From the IMG/VR virus record IMGVR_UViG_2778261505_000008, positions 1-37,974 of that record: a DNA stretch of 37,974 nucleotides; one strand, given 5' to 3'. Both the position numbers and the translations under genes were made by a program. The notes below the pieces were generated by a model, which saw only the letters and a list, made by a program, of their open reading frames with translations, had not been told where the DNA came from and searched no databases. Positions 11,156 through 37,974 of the stretch are shown in pieces; position 1 is the stretch's first letter; each line of letters starts with the position of its first letter. Origin of the DNA: a virus (lineage: Duplodnaviria > Heunggongvirae > Uroviricota > Caudoviricetes).

Positions 11156-13036
11156 ATGACGCCAAGTGAACTCAGCGACCTGCTTTGGGCGCAGGTTGAC
11201 AGGGTGGCTCCGCACCTGTTGCCAAACGGCAAGAAAGAGGGGCATGAGTGGGTTGCCGGTAACGTCAACGGTGACAAGGGAAACAGCCTTAAGGTCAACC
11301 TTAGCGGCAAGAAAAAATGGGCTGATTTCGCTGAGGGAGACGGCGGTGACATGCTTGATTTGTGGATGGCATGTCGTGGAATTAACCTGCATCAGGCTAT
11401 GCAGGAAGCGAAAGCATTTCTCGGTATCAAGGATGACGATCACCATTTCGATGCCAAACGTGAGAAAAAATTCTCCAGACCTGATCGCAAGAAAATCGCC
11501 CGCTACGTTACCAGAACAGAATCCCATCTTGAGTACCTGCAATCGCGTGGCATATCGCCAGAAATCGTAAAGCGCTACGAGGTTGTCAGCGGCAAGGTGT
11601 GGAATGGAGAACGAGAACTGGATGCCCTGGTGCTTCCGTACAAACGCGATGGTGAGTTGTTGCAGGTCAAGCGAATCAGCACTGAGCGCCCGGACGGGAA
11701 GAAAGTCATTATGGCAGAAGGTGATTGCGAACCTTGTCTGTTCGGATGGCAGGCTCTGGACGCTGGCGTGAGGGCGGTTGTACTTTGCGAAGGCGAAATT
11801 GATTGTATGAGCTATGCGCAATACGGCATCTCGGCGTTATCCGTGCCGTTTGGTGGCGGGAAAGGTGCTAAGCAACAGTGGATTGAGTTTGAGTATCACA
11901 ACCTCGACAGGTTTGAGGAGATATTCATCTCGATGGACGTTGATGATGTTGGTCGTGAAGCCGCAAGGGAAATCGCAAGCCGACTCGGTGAACATCGTTG
12001 CCGTCTTGTTACTCTGCCGTACAAAGACATCAACGAATGCCTGATGAACGGTGTTACCGAGGATGAAATCTGGCAGTACATCGGCATGGCATCCTACTTC
12101 GATCCTGAAGAACTCTACAGTGCGCGAGAGTTTTACCAGGACACTATCAACGCTTTCTACGGCAAGCAGCAGTATCTGTTTAATCCACCGTGGGAATCTC
12201 TGGCAGATAAATTCCAGTTCCGTGAGGCAGAGTTGACGCTGGTCAATGGTGTGAACGGCCACGGAAAAACGGAGGTTGTCGGGCATATGGCACTTGAGGC
12301 AATGCGTCAGGGTGTGAAGACGTGCATCGCGTCACTTGAGCTGAAGCCTGGTATTCTCCTTAAGCGCCTTACCCGTCAGGCGACGTGCTGCAAGATGCCG
12401 CCAGTGCTGGAAATTGACTCTGCATTTAAATTTTATGACGAGAGACTTTGGGTGTTTGGTCTGACCGGAACGGCGAAAGCCGACAGGCTGATCGAAATAT
12501 TCGACTACGCTCGCCGCCGATACGGTATCCAGTTATTCATCATCGACAGCCTGATGAAATGTGGCATAGGCGACGATGACTATAACGGGCAGAAGGCGTT
12601 TGTTGACTCGATTTGCGACTTCAAAAACAAAACAAACTCCCACGTCATTCTCGTTACTCACTCGCGAAAAGGAGACAGCGAAGAAAAACCAACCGGGAAA
12701 ATGGACGTAAAAGGCTCTGGAGCGATAACAGACCTGACAGACAATCTTTTCATCATCTGGCGTAACAAGGCTCGCGAGAGAGCGTTACAGAGAGTTCAGA
12801 GTGGTGAAAAGATGTCAGAGAAGGACGAACAGCTACTGGCATCTCCGGCATCTGTTTTGATGCTTGAAAAACAACGTAACGGCGAAGGTTGGGAAGGTGG
12901 TGTCCCGTTGTTCCTTGACGAGCAATCGCACCAGTTCCTGCAACTTGAATCAGGATCGCCATATAGCTACATCGCTAATATGCCGAAATCGGAATATGAC
13001 GAGGCGTGGCGACAGGAAAACGTGACGGAGTATTAA
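11156..13036 (+). CDS. Primase-helicase fusion: Toprim primase domain plus DnaB-like helicase C-terminal domain (626 aa)
   Basis: ORF track 11156..13036 (+), GAGGGA upstream. Toprim-like VVLCEGEIDCMSYAQYG; Walker A GVNGHGKT and Walker B-like LFIIDSL in the C-terminal half. Occupies the lambda P position. Confidence 0.8.
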   Translation: MTPSELSDLLWAQVDRVAPHLLPNGKKEGHEWVAGNVNGDKGNSLKVNLSGKKKWADFAEGDGGDMLDLWMACRGINLHQAMQEAKAFLGIKDDDHHFDAKREKKFSRPDRKKIARYVTRTESHLEYLQSRGISPEIVKRYEVVSGKVWNGERELDALVLPYKRDGELLQVKRISTERPDGKKVIMAEGDCEPCLFGWQALDAGVRAVVLCEGEIDCMSYAQYGISALSVPFGGGKGAKQQWIEFEYHNLDRFEEIFISMDVDDVGREAAREIASRLGEHRCRLVTLPYKDINECLMNGVTEDEIWQYIGMASYFDPEELYSAREFYQDTINAFYGKQQYLFNPPWESLADKFQFREAELTLVNGVNGHGKTEVVGHMALEAMRQGVKTCIASLELKPGILLKRLTRQATCCKMPPVLEIDSAFKFYDERLWVFGLTGTAKADRLIEIFDYARRRYGIQLFIIDSLMKCGIGDDDYNGQKAFVDSICDFKNKTNSHVILVTHSRKGDSEEKPTGKMDVKGSGAITDLTDNLFIIWRNKARERALQRVQSGEKMSEKDEQLLASPASVLMLEKQRNGEGWEGGVPLFLDEQSHQFLQLESGSPYSYIANMPKSEYDEAWRQENVTEY

Positions 13037-13065
13037 ATGACCATCTACATCACTGAGCTAATAAC

Positions 13066-13097
13066 AGGCCTGCTGGTAATCGCAGGCCTTTTTATTT
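13066..13097 (+). terminator. Rho-independent terminator after the primase-helicase gene
   Basis: aggcctgc-tggtaatc-gcaggcct: 8-bp perfect stem, then ttttatttg. Confidence 0.7.
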
Positions 13098-13113
13098 GGG
13101 GGAGAGGGAAGTC

Positions 13114-13701
13114 ATGAAAAAACTAACCTTTGAAATTCGATCTCCAGCACATCAGCAAAACGCTATTCACGCAGTACAGCAAATCCTTCCAGACCCAACC
13201 AAACCAATCAATCAAATAACTCAGCAGAGACTTAAAGAAGTCCTTCTCTACGATGAGTTAACAGGGAAATTCACATGGAAAGTAAAGAAATGCCAGAGAA
13301 TGAATGCTGGGGATATCGCAGGGCATAAGAGTAGCGAAGGCTACTGGGTAATAAAAGTCGATGGAAAACTTTATAAGGCACACAGGCTGGCGTGGCTCTA
13401 TATGAATGGCAGTCTACCAAAAAGTGATATCGACCACATAAATCTCGTTAGGGATGACAATCGTATAGCAAATCTTAGATTGGCAACTCGATCTCAAAAC
13501 ATCCAAAACGTAAACAAAAAGGCAAATAACAAATCAGGATATAAAGGCGTTTCATGGGATAAGAAATCAAGAAAATGGAGGGCGCAAATCGTAATCAACA
13601 AGAGGAAAGTTAATCTTGGGTTTTACGATGACCCAAAGGAAGCTCATAAAGTATATGCAAATAAAGCGGATGAATGTTTCGGCGAATTTGCGAGGTATTA
13701 A
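13114..13701 (+). CDS. HNH endonuclease with a NinB-like N-terminal segment fused in frame
   Basis: ATG at 13114 with GGAGAGGGAAG upstream. HNH/AP2-type core ...[35 protein letters not shown]...GYKGVSWDKKSRKWRAQI.... The first 32 aa MKKLTFEIRSPAHQQNAIHAVQQILPDPTKPI match my recollection of the lambda NinB N-terminus and are absent from the paralog at 36510-37010. Confidence 0.85.
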   Translation: MKKLTFEIRSPAHQQNAIHAVQQILPDPTKPINQITQQRLKEVLLYDELTGKFTWKVKKCQRMNAGDIAGHKSSEGYWVIKVDGKLYKAHRLAWLYMNGSLPKSDIDHINLVRDDNRIANLRLATRSQNIQNVNKKANNKSGYKGVSWDKKSRKWRAQIVINKRKVNLGFYDDPKEAHKVYANKADECFGEFARY

Positions 13702-13702
13702 A

Positions 13703-14131
13703 ATGAAATGTGTCAAATATCACCTTACTAATGAATCTATAAGATATAACGCCATTCAGTATCTTAGGACATGCGATTTAGACATCATTGTCGAGTTTAA
13801 GCAGCGCAACCGCAGCTTAGACCAGAATCGAAAGCTTTGGGCCTGCTTAGGTGACGTCTCTCGTCAGGTTGAATGGCATGGTCGCTGGCTGGATGCAGAA
13901 AGCTGGAAGTGTGTGTTTACCGCAGCATTAAAGCAGCAGGATGTTGTTCCTAACCTTGCCGGGAATGGCTTTGTAGTAATAGGCCAGTCAACCAGCAGGA
14001 TGCGTGTAAACGAATTTGCGGAGCTATTAGAGCTTATACAGGCATTCGGTACAGAGCGTGGCGTTAAGTGGTCAGACGAAGCGAGACTGGCTCTGGAGTG
14101 GAAAGCGAGATGGGGAGATCGGGCTGCATGA
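13703..14131 (+). CDS. ninB: NinB (Orf-family recombination mediator) with a divergent N-terminus
   Basis: ATG at 13703 with GAGGT upstream, 1 nt after the HNH stop. From ...KQRNRSLDQNRKLWACLGDVSRQVEWHGRWLDAESWKCVFTAALKQQDVVPNLAGNGFVVIGQSTSRM... to the end it matches remembered lambda NinB. The first 28 aa are a diverged version of the NinB N-terminus. Confidence 0.85.
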   Translation: MKCVKYHLTNESIRYNAIQYLRTCDLDIIVEFKQRNRSLDQNRKLWACLGDVSRQVEWHGRWLDAESWKCVFTAALKQQDVVPNLAGNGFVVIGQSTSRMRVNEFAELLELIQAFGTERGVKWSDEARLALEWKARWGDRAA

Positions 14132-14655
14132 CTATCAAATCAAATACGCCAGCACACGACAAGGACTGCTGGCAAACGCCGCTTTGGCTTTTTGATGCAC
14201 TGGATATTGAGTTTGGATTCTGGCTGGATTCGGCAGCGAGCGACAAAAATGCTCTGTGTGCTCACTGGCTAACTGAGGCCGACGACGCGCTCAATTCTGA
14301 GTGGGTAAGCCACGGTGCAATCTGGAATAACCCACCGTACAGCAATATCAGGCCGTGGGTGGAAAAAGCCGCTGAGCAGTGCATACAACAGCGACAGACG
14401 GTAGTTATGCTTGTGCCAGAGGATATGTCTGTCGGATGGTTCAGCAAGGCTCTGGAGAGTGTTGACGAAGTTCGCATTATCACTGATGGACGGATTAATT
14501 TTATCGAACCATCGACAGGGCTGGAGAAGAAGGGAAACAGCAAAGGTTCCATGCTGCTGATTTGGCGACCGTTCATCAGTCCTCGACGGATGTTTACTAC
14601 CGTATCCAAAGCGGCATTGATGGCGATCGGGCAGGGCGTCAGGAGGGCGGCATGA
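14128..14655 (+). CDS. Phage Dam-like DNA N6-adenine methyltransferase
   Basis: ATG at 14128 overlapping the ninB stop. NPPY catalytic motif ([11 protein letters not shown]) and Dam-type N-terminus [13 protein letters not shown]. No adjacent restriction gene, so an orphan methylase. Confidence 0.75.
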
Positions 14656-35475: not shown

Positions 35476-36399
35476 ATGAAAAGTATAGCAACAGCAGTAT
35501 CTACTATCAATGTACCATTCCACGGCGCAGAGCTTTATGTTGTCAATCACAACGGCGAACCGTATACCCCAATGAAACCTATCGTTGAGGGAATGGGGCT
35601 AGACTGGAAATCTCAACATAAGAAGATTTCTCAACGCTTCTCGAAGGGTATGGTGGAAATCACCATACCTTCTGCCGGTGGGGTGCAAGCCATGATTTGT
35701 ATGGCTTTACGAAAATTGGCAGCTTGGTTGAACAGCATCAGTCCTAACAAAGTCCGCCCTGAAATCCGCGACAAGGTAATCCAGTATCAGGAAGAGTGTG
35801 ACGATGTGCTCTACGAGTACTGGACTAAAGGCCATGTAGTTAACCCACGCAAAGCTAAAAAGGCGTTGCCGGGTAAAATCACCACTGAACAGCAGGAAGC
35901 CATTAAACAACTCGTCATGAGTCGCGGTCAGTCTCTGCCAAAAGAAAAACAGGCTAAGGCGATGATCACCATGTGGTCGTCACTGAAATCCCATTTTGGA
36001 TGTTCGTACAAAGAAATCAGTGAGGAGCAGTTTACCGAAGCACTATCACTTGCAGCTCGAGTTCCACTTGAAGGTGAGTTCATTGGCAAACAAGAGAAGA
36101 AAACAAACGAGCTTTCTGCAAAAGAAGCAAACAGCCTTGTATGGTTATGGGATTATGCCAACCGCTCACAGGCATTATTCCGCGAACTGTATCCGGCGCT
36201 AAAACAAATTCAATCGAACTATTCCGGCAGATGCTACGACTACGGTCATGAATTCTCGTATGTTATCGGAATGGCGAGAGACGTTTTAATAAACCACACA
36301 CGAGATGTTGATATCAATGAGCCAGATGGACCAACGAATCTTTCCGCATGGATGAGACTTAAGAATAAAGAATTACCTCCTTCAGTACATAACTACTGA
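35476..36399 (+). CDS. ant: Antirepressor Ant
   Basis: ORF track 35476..36399 (+). Size about 300 aa, position after arc, N-terminal antirepressor-like domain. Confidence 0.8.
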   Translation: MKSIATAVSTINVPFHGAELYVVNHNGEPYTPMKPIVEGMGLDWKSQHKKISQRFSKGMVEITIPSAGGVQAMICMALRKLAAWLNSISPNKVRPEIRDKVIQYQEECDDVLYEYWTKGHVVNPRKAKKALPGKITTEQQEAIKQLVMSRGQSLPKEKQAKAMITMWSSLKSHFGCSYKEISEEQFTEALSLAARVPLEGEFIGKQEKKTNELSAKEANSLVWLWDYANRSQALFRELYPALKQIQSNYSGRCYDYGHEFSYVIGMARDVLINHTRDVDINEPDGPTNLSAWMRLKNKELPPSVHNY

Positions 36400-36509: not shown

Positions 36510-37010
36510 TTACCTACTCAACAGATGGTCAGCAACCATGTTTGCTGCCTTATAAGCTATAGCCGCTTCATCAATGGTGTTGAATCTCCCAAGGGTTATG
36601 TTTTTACCTGAGACATTTATCTGAGCTTGCCATTGATTTCTGGCTTGACAGAAAGTTACCCCCTTGATTCCAGCATTGCTATTTCGAGGTCCGACATTTA
36701 ATGCATTTACGACTCTGCTGACATCCCTAAGGTTTGAGATTGCGTTATTTCTTCTGTTTCTATCAATGTGGTCAATCTCTTGTTTGGGCCATTCGCCATA
36801 TACATACAGCCAGGCAAGTCTATGTGCAAAATATCTTACGCCATCAATATTAATTGCGTTATATCCATAAGAAATTGTGCCAGCAACTTTCCCAACAGCA
36901 CCTCTGGCGCTTAATTTCTTTTTCCAAGTGAAAATTCCTGTTTCTTTATTGTAATCGAGAACCTCCATAAGGCGCTCCCGAGTTACTACCTCGTGACGTC
37001 TCTTACTCAT
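36510..37010 (-). CDS. HNH endonuclease, paralog of the ninB-associated one
   Basis: ORF track 36510..37052 (-), trimmed to the ATG at 37008-37010 with GGAG 6 nt upstream. ...TGIFTWKKK...[35 protein letters not shown]...[18 protein letters not shown]... is collinear with the 13114-13701 protein. AT-rich. Confidence 0.8.
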
Positions 37011-37032
37011 TATTTTCTCCGGAATGTTTATT

Positions 37033-37974
37033 ATGCCAGAACAATTATACAACGTAGTTGTTTCACAACCAAGTCAGTTATTTACTTTAGCTCGCTCGTT
37101 TAAAGCAAATGCCAATGGCAAAATTTATATCGGTAAAATTGACACTGACCCAGTAAATCCAGAAAACCAGATTCAGGTTTATGTAGAGAACGAAGATGGC
37201 TCTCACGTTCCTGTTTCGCAACCAATCATCATTAACGCTGCTGGATATCCGGTATATAACGGGCAGATTGCCAAGTTCGTTACTGTGCAAGGGCATTCTA
37301 TGGCTGTTTATGATGCATATGGAGCGCAGCAGTTTTATTTTCCGAATGTGCTGAAGTATGACCCGGATCAGTTAAGACAAGAGTTAGCAACAGAGGGTAA
37401 TGAAATACTTGTTGACGACTCCCGTATTGCAGTTAAAAGTGTTCATGTAAATTCAAAACTTAGAACCCAGCACAATAAAAACGCAGAAATAATCACGCCA
37501 AATGATTTTATATCAAATTATGACATGATATCTGCAGCTATTAACTCTGGAGATAGTGCCGCAGTATTTAATTCCAGGTATGCATTCACAATAACAGTTG
37601 GGGAATATGGTAATTTTAAATCTATTAGTGATGCTCTAAACTCGGCTGTTGCACTGCGTCCACTATGGAAAAATGGCATTGACTTTTGCATAATTAAAAT
37701 TCTTTCCGGTTTTGTGCTCAATGAGCAAATAGAAATTTCAGCAGGATGTGACTTATCATGGATTAAAATAATATCAGAAGACTCAGTGGTTTTCTCTGAC
37801 ACTCGTTTGTTTACTAAAACTGTTAGGACGTATTACGAATACAAATATTTATTTTACATTTGCGATGCAGCAAAAAGTCCTGTATTTGCTATTCAGATTG
37901 AAGAAAATAGAGATGATAGCGATGTTTGTGCATTTATTGTAACTCAAAAAGCTGAACTTAATTTCTATCCGTAT
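37033..37974 (+). CDS. Tailspike protein, 5' partial (314 codons, runs off the window end)
   Basis: Not in the ORF track because no stop lies within the window. ATG at 37033, open frame to 37974. N-terminus [97 protein letters not shown]... matches the conserved head-binding domain of P22/Sf6-group tailspikes. Later sequence diverges and is AT-rich. Confidence 0.85.

Follow-up and report, generated by a model that had tools for sequence, protein, structure and literature searches.

The subject of this study is a 37,974-nucleotide (nt) stretch of viral DNA, IMG/VR record IMGVR_UViG_2778261505_000008 (positions 1 to 37,974, hereafter the window), which represents a lambdoid prophage or phage. 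Its ninB gene is occupied by a 595-nt segment (13210–13804, + strand) that is probably a homing-endonuclease cassette, embedded in the coding sequence of ninB with neither an intron nor an intein around it. The segment consists of an HNH-AP2 endonuclease gene, fused in frame to the first 32 codons of the resident ninB, and a foreign ninB 5' end that makes the interrupted gene complete again.

Structure of the cassette and its junctions

Two very different ninB alleles without an endonuclease, those of phage mEp043 (lambda-type) and of Shiga toxin (Stx) phage P27, served as references for mapping the junctions. Phage mEp043 shares the primase, the terminator and the methyltransferase with the window, and its ninB is uninterrupted. 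Identity between the window and mEp043 holds through 13209, the last base of codon 32, and returns at 13805, the first base of CGC, Arg39 of lambda NinB. Both junctions (13209/13210 and 13804/13805) are exact and fall at codon boundaries, which argues against a chance resemblance to the uninterrupted gene. An earlier note on this DNA, made from the sequence alone, had proposed that an HNH gene invaded the 5' end of ninB and that the segment coding for the NinB N-terminus is present twice. The alignments support this proposal, and comparison with HNH-free alleles located the junctions, as the note had foreseen. However, the event was not a plain insertion, since the 595 nt stand in for exactly 18 nt of intact ninB, GTAGTAACCATTCAGGAA (residues VVTIQE). 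The same 595 nt were delimited by alignment with P27 and are conserved in 22 loci (see section Distribution and mobility of the cassette).

From 5' to 3', the cassette carries endonuclease codons 33–195 (from the second native codon onward) with their stop and a GAGG Shine-Dalgarno sequence, then an ATG and the 34 codons of the replacement ninB end, here called type B. The fusion open reading frame (ORF), NinB(1–32)::HNH_3-AP2, spans 13114–13701 on the + strand (195 codons, 195 residues; stop TAA at 13699–13701) and was defined from sequence, Pfam and an AlphaFold2 (AF2) model. Its first 32 residues (MKKLTFEIRSPAHQQNAIHAVQQILPDPTKPI) are a 100% match to NinB of mEp043 and of many E. coli prophages, in line with the earlier note, which had read them as NinB. 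These codons (13114–13209, + strand) are a remnant of the resident gene, here called type A, as the alignment with mEp043 makes clear. The remnant is now the N-terminal extension of the endonuclease and, we infer, serves as its translation start and as a left homology arm. The native methionine of the endonuclease is absent, and the join reads PI/NQITQQ (the stroke marks the junction). Free-standing homologues begin 2–5 residues 5' of an ITxxRL motif; the join therefore lies at the natural N-terminus and truncates no domain.

One base (13702) after the TAA, an ATG at 13703 opens a complete, chimeric ninB of 142 codons that ends at 14131 (13703–14131, + strand; 142 residues, recognised by Pfam and by an AF2 model). 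Its Shine-Dalgarno sequence, GAGG at 13692–13695 (+ strand), lies within the 3' end of the endonuclease gene, 7 nt before the ATG. The earlier note was thus right to describe a complete ninB with its own Shine-Dalgarno sequence one nucleotide after the HNH stop. The close spacing of the endonuclease stop and the ninB start, only 1 nt apart, suggests translational coupling. Codons 35–142 of the chimera (13805–14131, + strand) are the resident lambda-type ninB body, and the stop of the chimeric gene overlaps the start of a dam-type methyltransferase gene. The G+C content is 0.39 in the endonuclease body and 0.33 in the type-B segment, against 0.52 in the rest of ninB and 0.47 in the window; this difference from the flank supports a foreign origin of the whole cassette.

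The cassette sits in a conserved 60-nt island, which in empty ninB reads ...CAAATCCTTCCAGACCCAACCAAACCAATC followed directly by GTAGTAACCATTCAGGAA and CGCAACCGCAGC. The left half of the island (13180–13209, + strand) is common to all filled and empty alleles and identical in the lambda-type and P27-type empty alleles. It shows 0–1 mismatch in 16 loci, compared to up to 21 differences in the 66 bases of 13114–13179. The right half, CGCAACCGCAGC, comprises the first 12 nt of the resident ninB body. Both the 18 nt and the 60-nt island are shared by the uninterrupted P27 allele and the lambda-type alleles. Of the 18 replaced bases, 10 are different in the homologous part of the type-B end, and hence the filled allele should be immune to cutting.

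Origin of the replacement ninB end

The earlier note regarded the second NinB N-terminus as a diverged, recoded duplicate of the first. Our results point instead to a foreign sequence that is carried by the cassette. The type-B end (MKCVKYHLTNESIRYNAIQYLRTCDLDIIVEFKQ; 13703–13804, + strand) and the type-A remnant are both NinB N-termini, with M1, K2, an N-A-I motif and an I-x-V pattern in common. Yet, they are identical at only 59 of 126 nt (47%), the G+C content of type B is 33% versus 42% for type A, and the longest word common to type B and 13114–13209 is 6 nt. Type B has ~40% amino-acid identity to ordinary NinB N-termini, and lacks a 4-residue loop that is present in 29 aligned independent NinBs.

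Wherever type B occurred in the E. coli genomes or phage records, it was linked to the endonuclease. Distant blastn and tblastn searches of type B against phages gave nothing nearer than ordinary NinB (40–42%), and a word-indexed protein search with a short query of 46 residues returned two self-fragments only. An exhaustive HMMER search of 1.84 billion representative proteins recovered, besides self-fragments, a single natural relative (P0124; 50% identity, E 2e-4), which is the nearest sequence found. This is a truncated NinB of a different NinB class, in a decayed prophage and with no HNH gene upstream (L096 4001–4258, GCA_030134465.1). It adjoins two DNA polymerase III theta-like genes. 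These type-B origin searches found no donor phage with a free-standing copy of the endonuclease upstream of a full type-B ninB.

The chimeric NinB has the full-length domain and the fold of the NinB/Orf recombination mediator. It scores 157 bits against PF05772, over profile positions 4–131 of 131, and matches PDB 1PC6 with an E of 1.7e-73, being nearly identical to it over residues 19–142. Likewise, 1PC6 is the sole significant solved match (141 columns) of its AF2 model, which has a predicted local distance difference test score (pLDDT) of 82. The sequence and the model thus suggest that the chimeric protein would be functional.

A ninB with yet another N-terminus, MKQIYMLRNEAIRNNAIDAILSLPIDDKSPHEVHIKEPKRSNPQNR, on a lambda-type body occurs without an endonuclease (P0143; L097/L098 2501–2938). 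It lacks the 60-nt island and is therefore predicted to be endonuclease-resistant. This allele could be what is left of another cassette, or just a mosaic of the ordinary kind. As no NinB-derived ORF lies upstream, we rejected it as a further case of the design.

The HNH-AP2 endonuclease

The fusion protein belongs to the HNH_3+AP2 class of HNH (His-Me finger) proteins, with a nuclease domain that includes the catalytic His and Asn. HNH_3 (PF13392) was found at fusion residues 87–129 (E 9.3e-17; 60.8 bits versus a cut-off of 24.8) and AP2 (PF00847) at residues 141–181 (E 1e-6; 29.4 bits). On the DNA, the HNH motif lies at ~13372–13500, with His108 at 13435–13437, and AP2 at ~13534–13656. Residues D107, H108, N116, N120 and N132 are invariant across 50 homologues.

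In the AF2 model of the fusion (pLDDT 90), confidence is high for the HNH-plus-AP2 body and low for the N-terminal tail, whose single helix is that of NinB. The AP2 part of the model superposes on the AP2 domains of TEM1 and AtERF1 at 1.3–2.0 Å with a probability of 1.0. The best solved match of the model is I-HmuI, to the nuclease domain (PDB 1U3E; 96 residues, root-mean-square deviation 3.8 Å, probability 1.0, 23% identity), followed by plant AP2 domains. The similarity to I-HmuI suggests a single-metal His-Me finger, which may nick DNA instead of cutting both strands. Compared to a 66%-identical lineage (P0002, contig L004), the rate of nonsynonymous change (pN 0.21) is much lower than that of synonymous change (pS 0.74), indicating purifying selection on the endonuclease.

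The window contains a second HNH_3+AP2 gene, free-standing and identified by Pfam, which encodes 180 residues. It is 44% identical to the fusion, and the similarity starts at fusion residue 35. The absence of a NinB-derived extension from this paralogue had been noticed before, but its coordinates and strand needed amendment: it lies on the minus strand at 36510–37052. The gene is convergent with an antirepressor-like gene at 35476–36399.

Distribution and mobility of the cassette

We surveyed 5426 complete E. coli genomes, 50,697 phage records, IMG/VR prophages and metagenome contigs. The filled site was present in only 8 of the E. coli genomes (identity 99% or more). Empty alleles, which the earlier note had asked to be sought, are abundant: 1317 of the 5426 genomes have an empty site with an intact 60-nt island. 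The cassette was not found in any of the 50,697 phage records; further copies came from IMG/VR prophages and metagenome contigs. Its presence among close relatives, at one homologous site, is thus sporadic.

We compared 22 filled loci, drawn from E. coli genomes, IMG/VR prophages and metagenomes: pairwise identity of the cassette is at least 98.8%, and its position is always the same to the nucleotide. Its flanks are far more diverse. In these same loci, the left 200 nt fall into 11–13 clusters and the right 300 nt into 2–7, giving 11–15 left/right combinations, and ungapped flank identity drops to 0.49 and 0.35. A near-identical element in such divergent flanks indicates horizontal spread. 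The allele of the captured ninB remnant follows the upstream flank. For instance, one remnant allele, MRKRTFELRSPIHQQNAIQAIQQ..., differs at 21 of the 66 bases in 13114–13179, whereas the adjoining cassette differs at 0–1 base. In none of the 21 other loci is the 195-codon frame interrupted, and their several N-terminal alleles are all in frame.

Two loci, L019 and L094, have a Stx-phage ninB body of very different sequence behind the cassette (RNRS/IRQNARLHAML...). The right-hand join to this P27-type body rests on the 12 nt of CGCAACCGCAGC alone, and therefore break-stimulated repair is an easier explanation than general recombination. The cassette also adjoins a Salmonella-type ninB body (P0127, P0128).

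A more distant relative, the 66%-identical endonuclease P0002, was found on two metagenomic contigs (L004 and L020). It has a NinB-like N-terminus, MRKQTFEIRTPLVQQNAIRTIQQLYPDLGKEI. On L004, a GAGG is followed by a TGA and, immediately after it, the ATG of the next gene. The latter starts with MKTIRYHLIDES and is type-B-like over the 11–12 codons that are readable up to the contig end, as both contigs stop at or within the element. A degenerate DNA pattern for this lineage gave 0 matches in genome contigs, and in metagenome contigs the E. coli-type cassette only. Since P0002 retains both the fusion and a type-B-like start, the combination of remnant::endonuclease and replacement end seems to be an old design that has been passed on as such.

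The interval between primase and ninB is an insertion hotspot, with other inserts in genomes H79 and H84 and an insertion sequence (IS) element in genome H8. A free-standing HNH-AP2 gene of 203 residues occurs just 5' of the tR2 hairpin, with an intact ninB downstream, in E. coli LWY24 (L003 1670–2281) and on L098 (1628–2239).

Expression signals and annotation

A toprim primase-helicase gene (11156–13036) lies upstream of a hairpin terminator and of GGGGGAGAGGGAAGTC-ATG. The terminator scan identified a lambda tR2-type intrinsic terminator at 13066–13099 on the + strand (hairpin 13066–13089 plus T run), so the hairpin that the earlier note placed upstream of the element is real. However, it belongs to the host phage and is no part of the element: it lies 120 nt outside the cassette, recurs in endonuclease-free phages, and its sequence is identical 5' of the uninterrupted ninB of mEp043. 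The native ninB ribosome-binding region GGGGGAGAGGGAAGTC (13098–13113, + strand), likewise identical in uninterrupted ninB, now serves the endonuclease ORF.

The suggestion that the element carries its own expression signals is not borne out. A promoter scan of the cassette gave a single weak sigma-70-like site, which lies in the HNH gene, and shuffled controls contained more such sites; the site is not credible as an expression signal, and we rejected a cassette-borne promoter. The endonuclease is not a free-standing intergenic gene with its own start codon and ribosome-binding site either, because it uses those of ninB and includes 32 ninB codons. Neither is the locus a group I or group II intron, as an Rfam scan of 12800–14400 at E up to 1 gave no intron family and one chance match to a CRISPR repeat. 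An intein is excluded by the stop codon at 13699–13701, the downstream gene in another frame and the lack of a Hint domain in the Pfam results.

The RefSeq annotation of E. coli TUM1880 by the Prokaryotic Genome Annotation Pipeline (PGAP; L002 2591–3178) splits the fusion into a pseudogene, 'HNH endonuclease, missing C-terminus', and a 164-residue HNH protein that starts from a non-canonical ATC (13207). The same duplicate 'HNH endonuclease' annotation occurs in 8 out of 8 filled E. coli genomes. This split is a systematic artefact, which arose because the fusion went unrecognised. Our findings explain why annotations repeatedly show, as an artefact, a pseudo 'HNH' fragment beside an HNH gene with a non-ATG start.

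Related arrangements at other genes

Comparable structures occur at two neighbouring genes. In E. coli GCA_026260335.1 (L097 2935–3989; the site corresponds to window 14128–14170), an HNH_3 gene begins with MTIKSNTPA, the first 9 codons of dam. Its product is 34% identical to the window endonuclease and has no Pfam AP2. The gene overlaps the following dam at ATGA, and this dam starts with a new N-terminus, MIKHKSETPKEVR; the cassette puts 537 nt in the place of 10 nt (window 14154–14163). The dam cassette was present in 34 of the 5426 E. coli genomes and in no phage record. A dam allele of E. coli PK12 (NZ_CP074031.1 1579704–1579779) shares nothing but the replacement 5' end with the dam cassette, and no HNH gene is annotated. 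This allele could be the natural source or a derivative that lost the endonuclease.

At ninG of E. coli TUM1880 (L002 4471–5614), an HNH-AP2 gene begins with MAKPARR, the first 7 ninG codons, and the ninG that follows has ~30 diverged, AT-rich codons at its start (empty allele: L005 6221–6826). The G+C content is 0.39 in this endonuclease, 0.35 in the replacement end and 0.51 in the rest.

A mirror image was found at the other end of ninB, in Stx phage P27 (KU238067; L090 1387–2398) and in L019 (3590–4589). There, an I-HmuI-like NUMOD4-HNH gene 3' of ninB ends in ...KARWGDRAA, the last ~9 residues of lambda-type NinB, and an 855-nt block (a diverged ninB body plus the endonuclease) replaces 284 nt of lambda-type ninB. 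In L019, endonucleases flank ninB on both sides.

The cases of ninB in the window, dam and ninG are independent of one another and support a general strategy, with the 3' end of Stx-phage ninB as mirror case. In our judgement there is slightly more for than against the view that lambdoid HNH-AP2 homing endonucleases share a general, undescribed way of colonising coding genes without introns or inteins, which may be called 'start capture plus end replacement'. An in-frame fusion to the first 7–32 codons of the target would give the endonuclease a ribosome-binding site, an ATG and a left homology arm; we lean modestly towards this part too. With the same reserve, we favour a role for the diverged, putatively cleavage-immune substitute end, which, coupled to the endonuclease stop, would keep the host gene functional. 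If true, endonuclease traffic would, as a by-product, have created some of the allelic diversity found at the ends of early genes in lambdoid phages.

Proposed mechanism and alternative explanations

A homing cycle of the cassette might run as follows. The fusion NinB(1–32)::HNH-AP2, whose reading frame is observed, would be made from the ninB ribosome-binding site and ATG. Judging from lambda biology, it would be expressed on the antiterminated, delayed-early pR transcript that reads through tR2. The enzyme may then nick or cut endonuclease-free ninB in or near the 60-nt island, in co-infecting phages or resident prophages. The population structure suggests that recombinational repair would copy the cassette from the filled allele, with the remnant and upstream DNA as left arm and the ninB body as right arm. 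The foreign, AT-rich ninB 5' end, which has its own Shine-Dalgarno sequence and ATG as observed in the gene structure, would be supplied by the cassette itself. The phage would still make full-length NinB, and a low cost to the phage is therefore expected. Because remnant and replacement have no word longer than 6 nt in common, recombination between direct repeats should be unable to remove the element. The cassette plausibly arose from an endonuclease gene that stood free, immediately 5' of a type-B ninB, in a phage of AT-rich composition. In a first jump into a lambda-type ninB, the broken target end could have been joined to the second codon of the endonuclease, and the resulting in-frame fusion would then be homologous to lambda-type alleles on either side.

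Several points weigh against such a cycle. Cleavage and homing are predicted from sequence, and the target island from the position of the insertion alone. The AP2 score is lower than the Pfam gathering threshold (29.4 versus 33.3 bits), even though the fold check was positive. Lambdoid phages are highly mosaic, and a passive cassette could be exchanged among lambda-type ninB alleles through ordinary homologous recombination of the flanking DNA. Occupancy is ~0.6% of sites, unlike the sweep expected of a very efficient homing element. Moreover, the downstream ninB of the diverged lineage can be read for 11–12 codons only, up to the contig end.

The main rival is indeed passive shuffling of a mosaic module, in which the HNH gene and the type-B end would be a lambdoid 'moron' whose spread depends on general or Red-mediated recombination between short stretches of conserved sequence. 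In that case the endonuclease would have no part in the spread, and may be inactive or, for example, attack competing phages. Low occupancy, the mosaicism of lambdoid genomes at this scale, the shuffled flanks of the cassette itself, and the several unrelated insertions in the primase–ninB interval of other genomes are all consistent with such a module. It would not explain, however, why the boundaries are nucleotide-identical in 22 of 22 loci, with one join on 12 nt only, nor why the endonuclease is always intact and under purifying selection. Replacement of a 5' end linked to an endonuclease at ninB, dam and ninG would also be unexpected for a module unrelated to nuclease activity. We consider passive shuffling unlikely, though worth keeping in mind. 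A local duplication, in which the insertion produced a second copy of the resident ninB 5' end, with later divergence of the downstream copy and loss of its cleavage site, would account for the homology of the two N-termini (M1, K2, N-A-I, I-x-V). Yet the remnant is 100% identical to empty alleles and the cassette at least 98.8% conserved, which leaves no time for divergence in place to 47% identity (59/126). The difference in G+C content (33% versus 42%), the missing 4-residue loop, the greater similarity of type B to P0124 (50%) than to type A (40%), and a type-B-like start already present in the 66%-identical lineage (11–12 codons readable) make this origin quite improbable.

Slightly less credible still is decay, with the 5' piece as a pseudogene fragment and the HNH gene as a broken or misannotated remnant, as the PGAP annotation of TUM1880 would have it. 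No stop interrupts the 195 codons in the window or in any of the 21 other loci, whose N-terminal alleles vary but stay in frame, the fusion is kept in the 66%-identical lineage, the join lies at the natural endonuclease N-terminus without a truncated domain, and the native ribosome-binding site precedes the ATG at 13114. An endonuclease borne by an intron or intein, where splicing of RNA or protein restores one NinB, would match the usual way in which homing endonucleases ride within coding genes (PMC3943268). It seems extremely improbable here, in view of the absence of an Rfam intron family even at E up to 1, the stop codon that ends the ORF, the downstream ninB, which lies in a different frame and has a separate Shine-Dalgarno sequence and ATG, and the absence of a Hint domain; in addition, splicing out the insert would leave 18 bases missing. 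The recurrence of the design at dam and ninG, by other HNH_3 genes, counts for the homing-cassette reading, which we hold to be probable. A homing cassette of this kind would offer a concrete mechanism for sharp mosaic joints and hybrid alleles within lambdoid genes, and a simple, testable lambda-based system for intron-less homing and co-conversion. Its target, NinB/Orf, is itself a recombination mediator.

Comparison with known systems

Homing endonucleases are said to need introns or inteins to invade conserved coding sequence, while free-standing ones stay intergenic (PMC3943268). In a classic family of model phages, the locus in the window would represent a third solution. The element brings a spare end for the gene that it interrupts, and is itself translated from the displaced piece. 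The 'intronless homing' of SegF, SegG and MobE, which are variably present among related T-even phages (PMC2988022, PMC2790892), is similar in that a phage endonuclease gene, with neither intron nor intein, is believed to spread when its product cuts alleles that lack the gene and the gene is copied in along with flanking DNA. In contrast to the ninB cassette, however, the Seg/Mob genes are intergenic, have their own starts and often cut hundreds of base pairs away. The ninB cassette lies inside the target ORF, borrows the start codon of its target and carries a substitute target end.

In Aeromonas phage Aeh1, mobE splits nrdA into 'genes in pieces' (Friedrich et al. 2007, as cited in PMC2988022). 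According to that summary, mobE also resides inside a phage coding gene without a splicing element while the function of the host gene is retained, as is presumably the case for ninB. The two halves of Aeh1 nrdA are described there as separately translated and reassembling, whereas ninB is made whole by a foreign 5' end. The displaced 5' piece of ninB becomes part of the endonuclease.

The combination of HNH and AP2 is a described homing-endonuclease family (Magnani et al. 2004, as cited in PMC10448857), which includes the 'IPA-HNH' genes of vibriophage ICP1 (PMC10448857). The window endonuclease resembles this family in its N-terminal HNH_3 nuclease and C-terminal AP2 DNA-binding domain, and about 3800 phage records carry relatives. 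The described members are free-standing, and a target-derived extension with an attached replacement end falls outside the family description.

No paper in the literature library that we searched connects ninB or the nin region to a homing endonuclease, aside from a remark in passing on gene 31 of Salmonella phage epsilon34, an in-frame fusion of an EaE N-terminus to HNH (PMC2629481). Like the ninB fusion ORF, this gene of a lambdoid, P22-like phage is annotated as joining the N-terminus of a resident gene in frame to an HNH homing endonuclease. Unlike at ninB, the replacement-end half of the design is absent or lost: gene 31 (L100 5664–6356, − strand) is annotated as 'possibly defective', and the next gene downstream is not a restored eaE. 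We therefore rejected it as a full further case. I-HmuI of Bacillus phage SPO1, an HNH nicking endonuclease, is encoded by an intron and has NUMOD and helix-turn-helix modules, where the window enzyme uses AP2.

The nearest conceptual relatives appear to be fungal. Work by Paquin and colleagues in 1994 reportedly described, in the atp6/ORF360 region of Allomyces, a mitochondrial endonuclease ORF fused in frame to a host gene, with a duplicated or foreign gene end. A mitochondrial endonuclease ORF fused to the host gene rps3 of Ophiostoma is likewise said to have been described, by Sethuraman and colleagues in 2009. In these cases the element reportedly carries part of its target, a complete gene persists, the displaced native fragment adjoins it, and the hybrid arose by horizontal transfer, all of which resembles the ninB cassette. 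They reportedly involve LAGLIDADG or GIY-YIG endonucleases at the 3' ends of mitochondrial genes. The ninB cassette differs in placing an HNH-AP2 endonuclease at the 5' end of a phage gene, with capture of the start codon and probable translational coupling to the restored gene.

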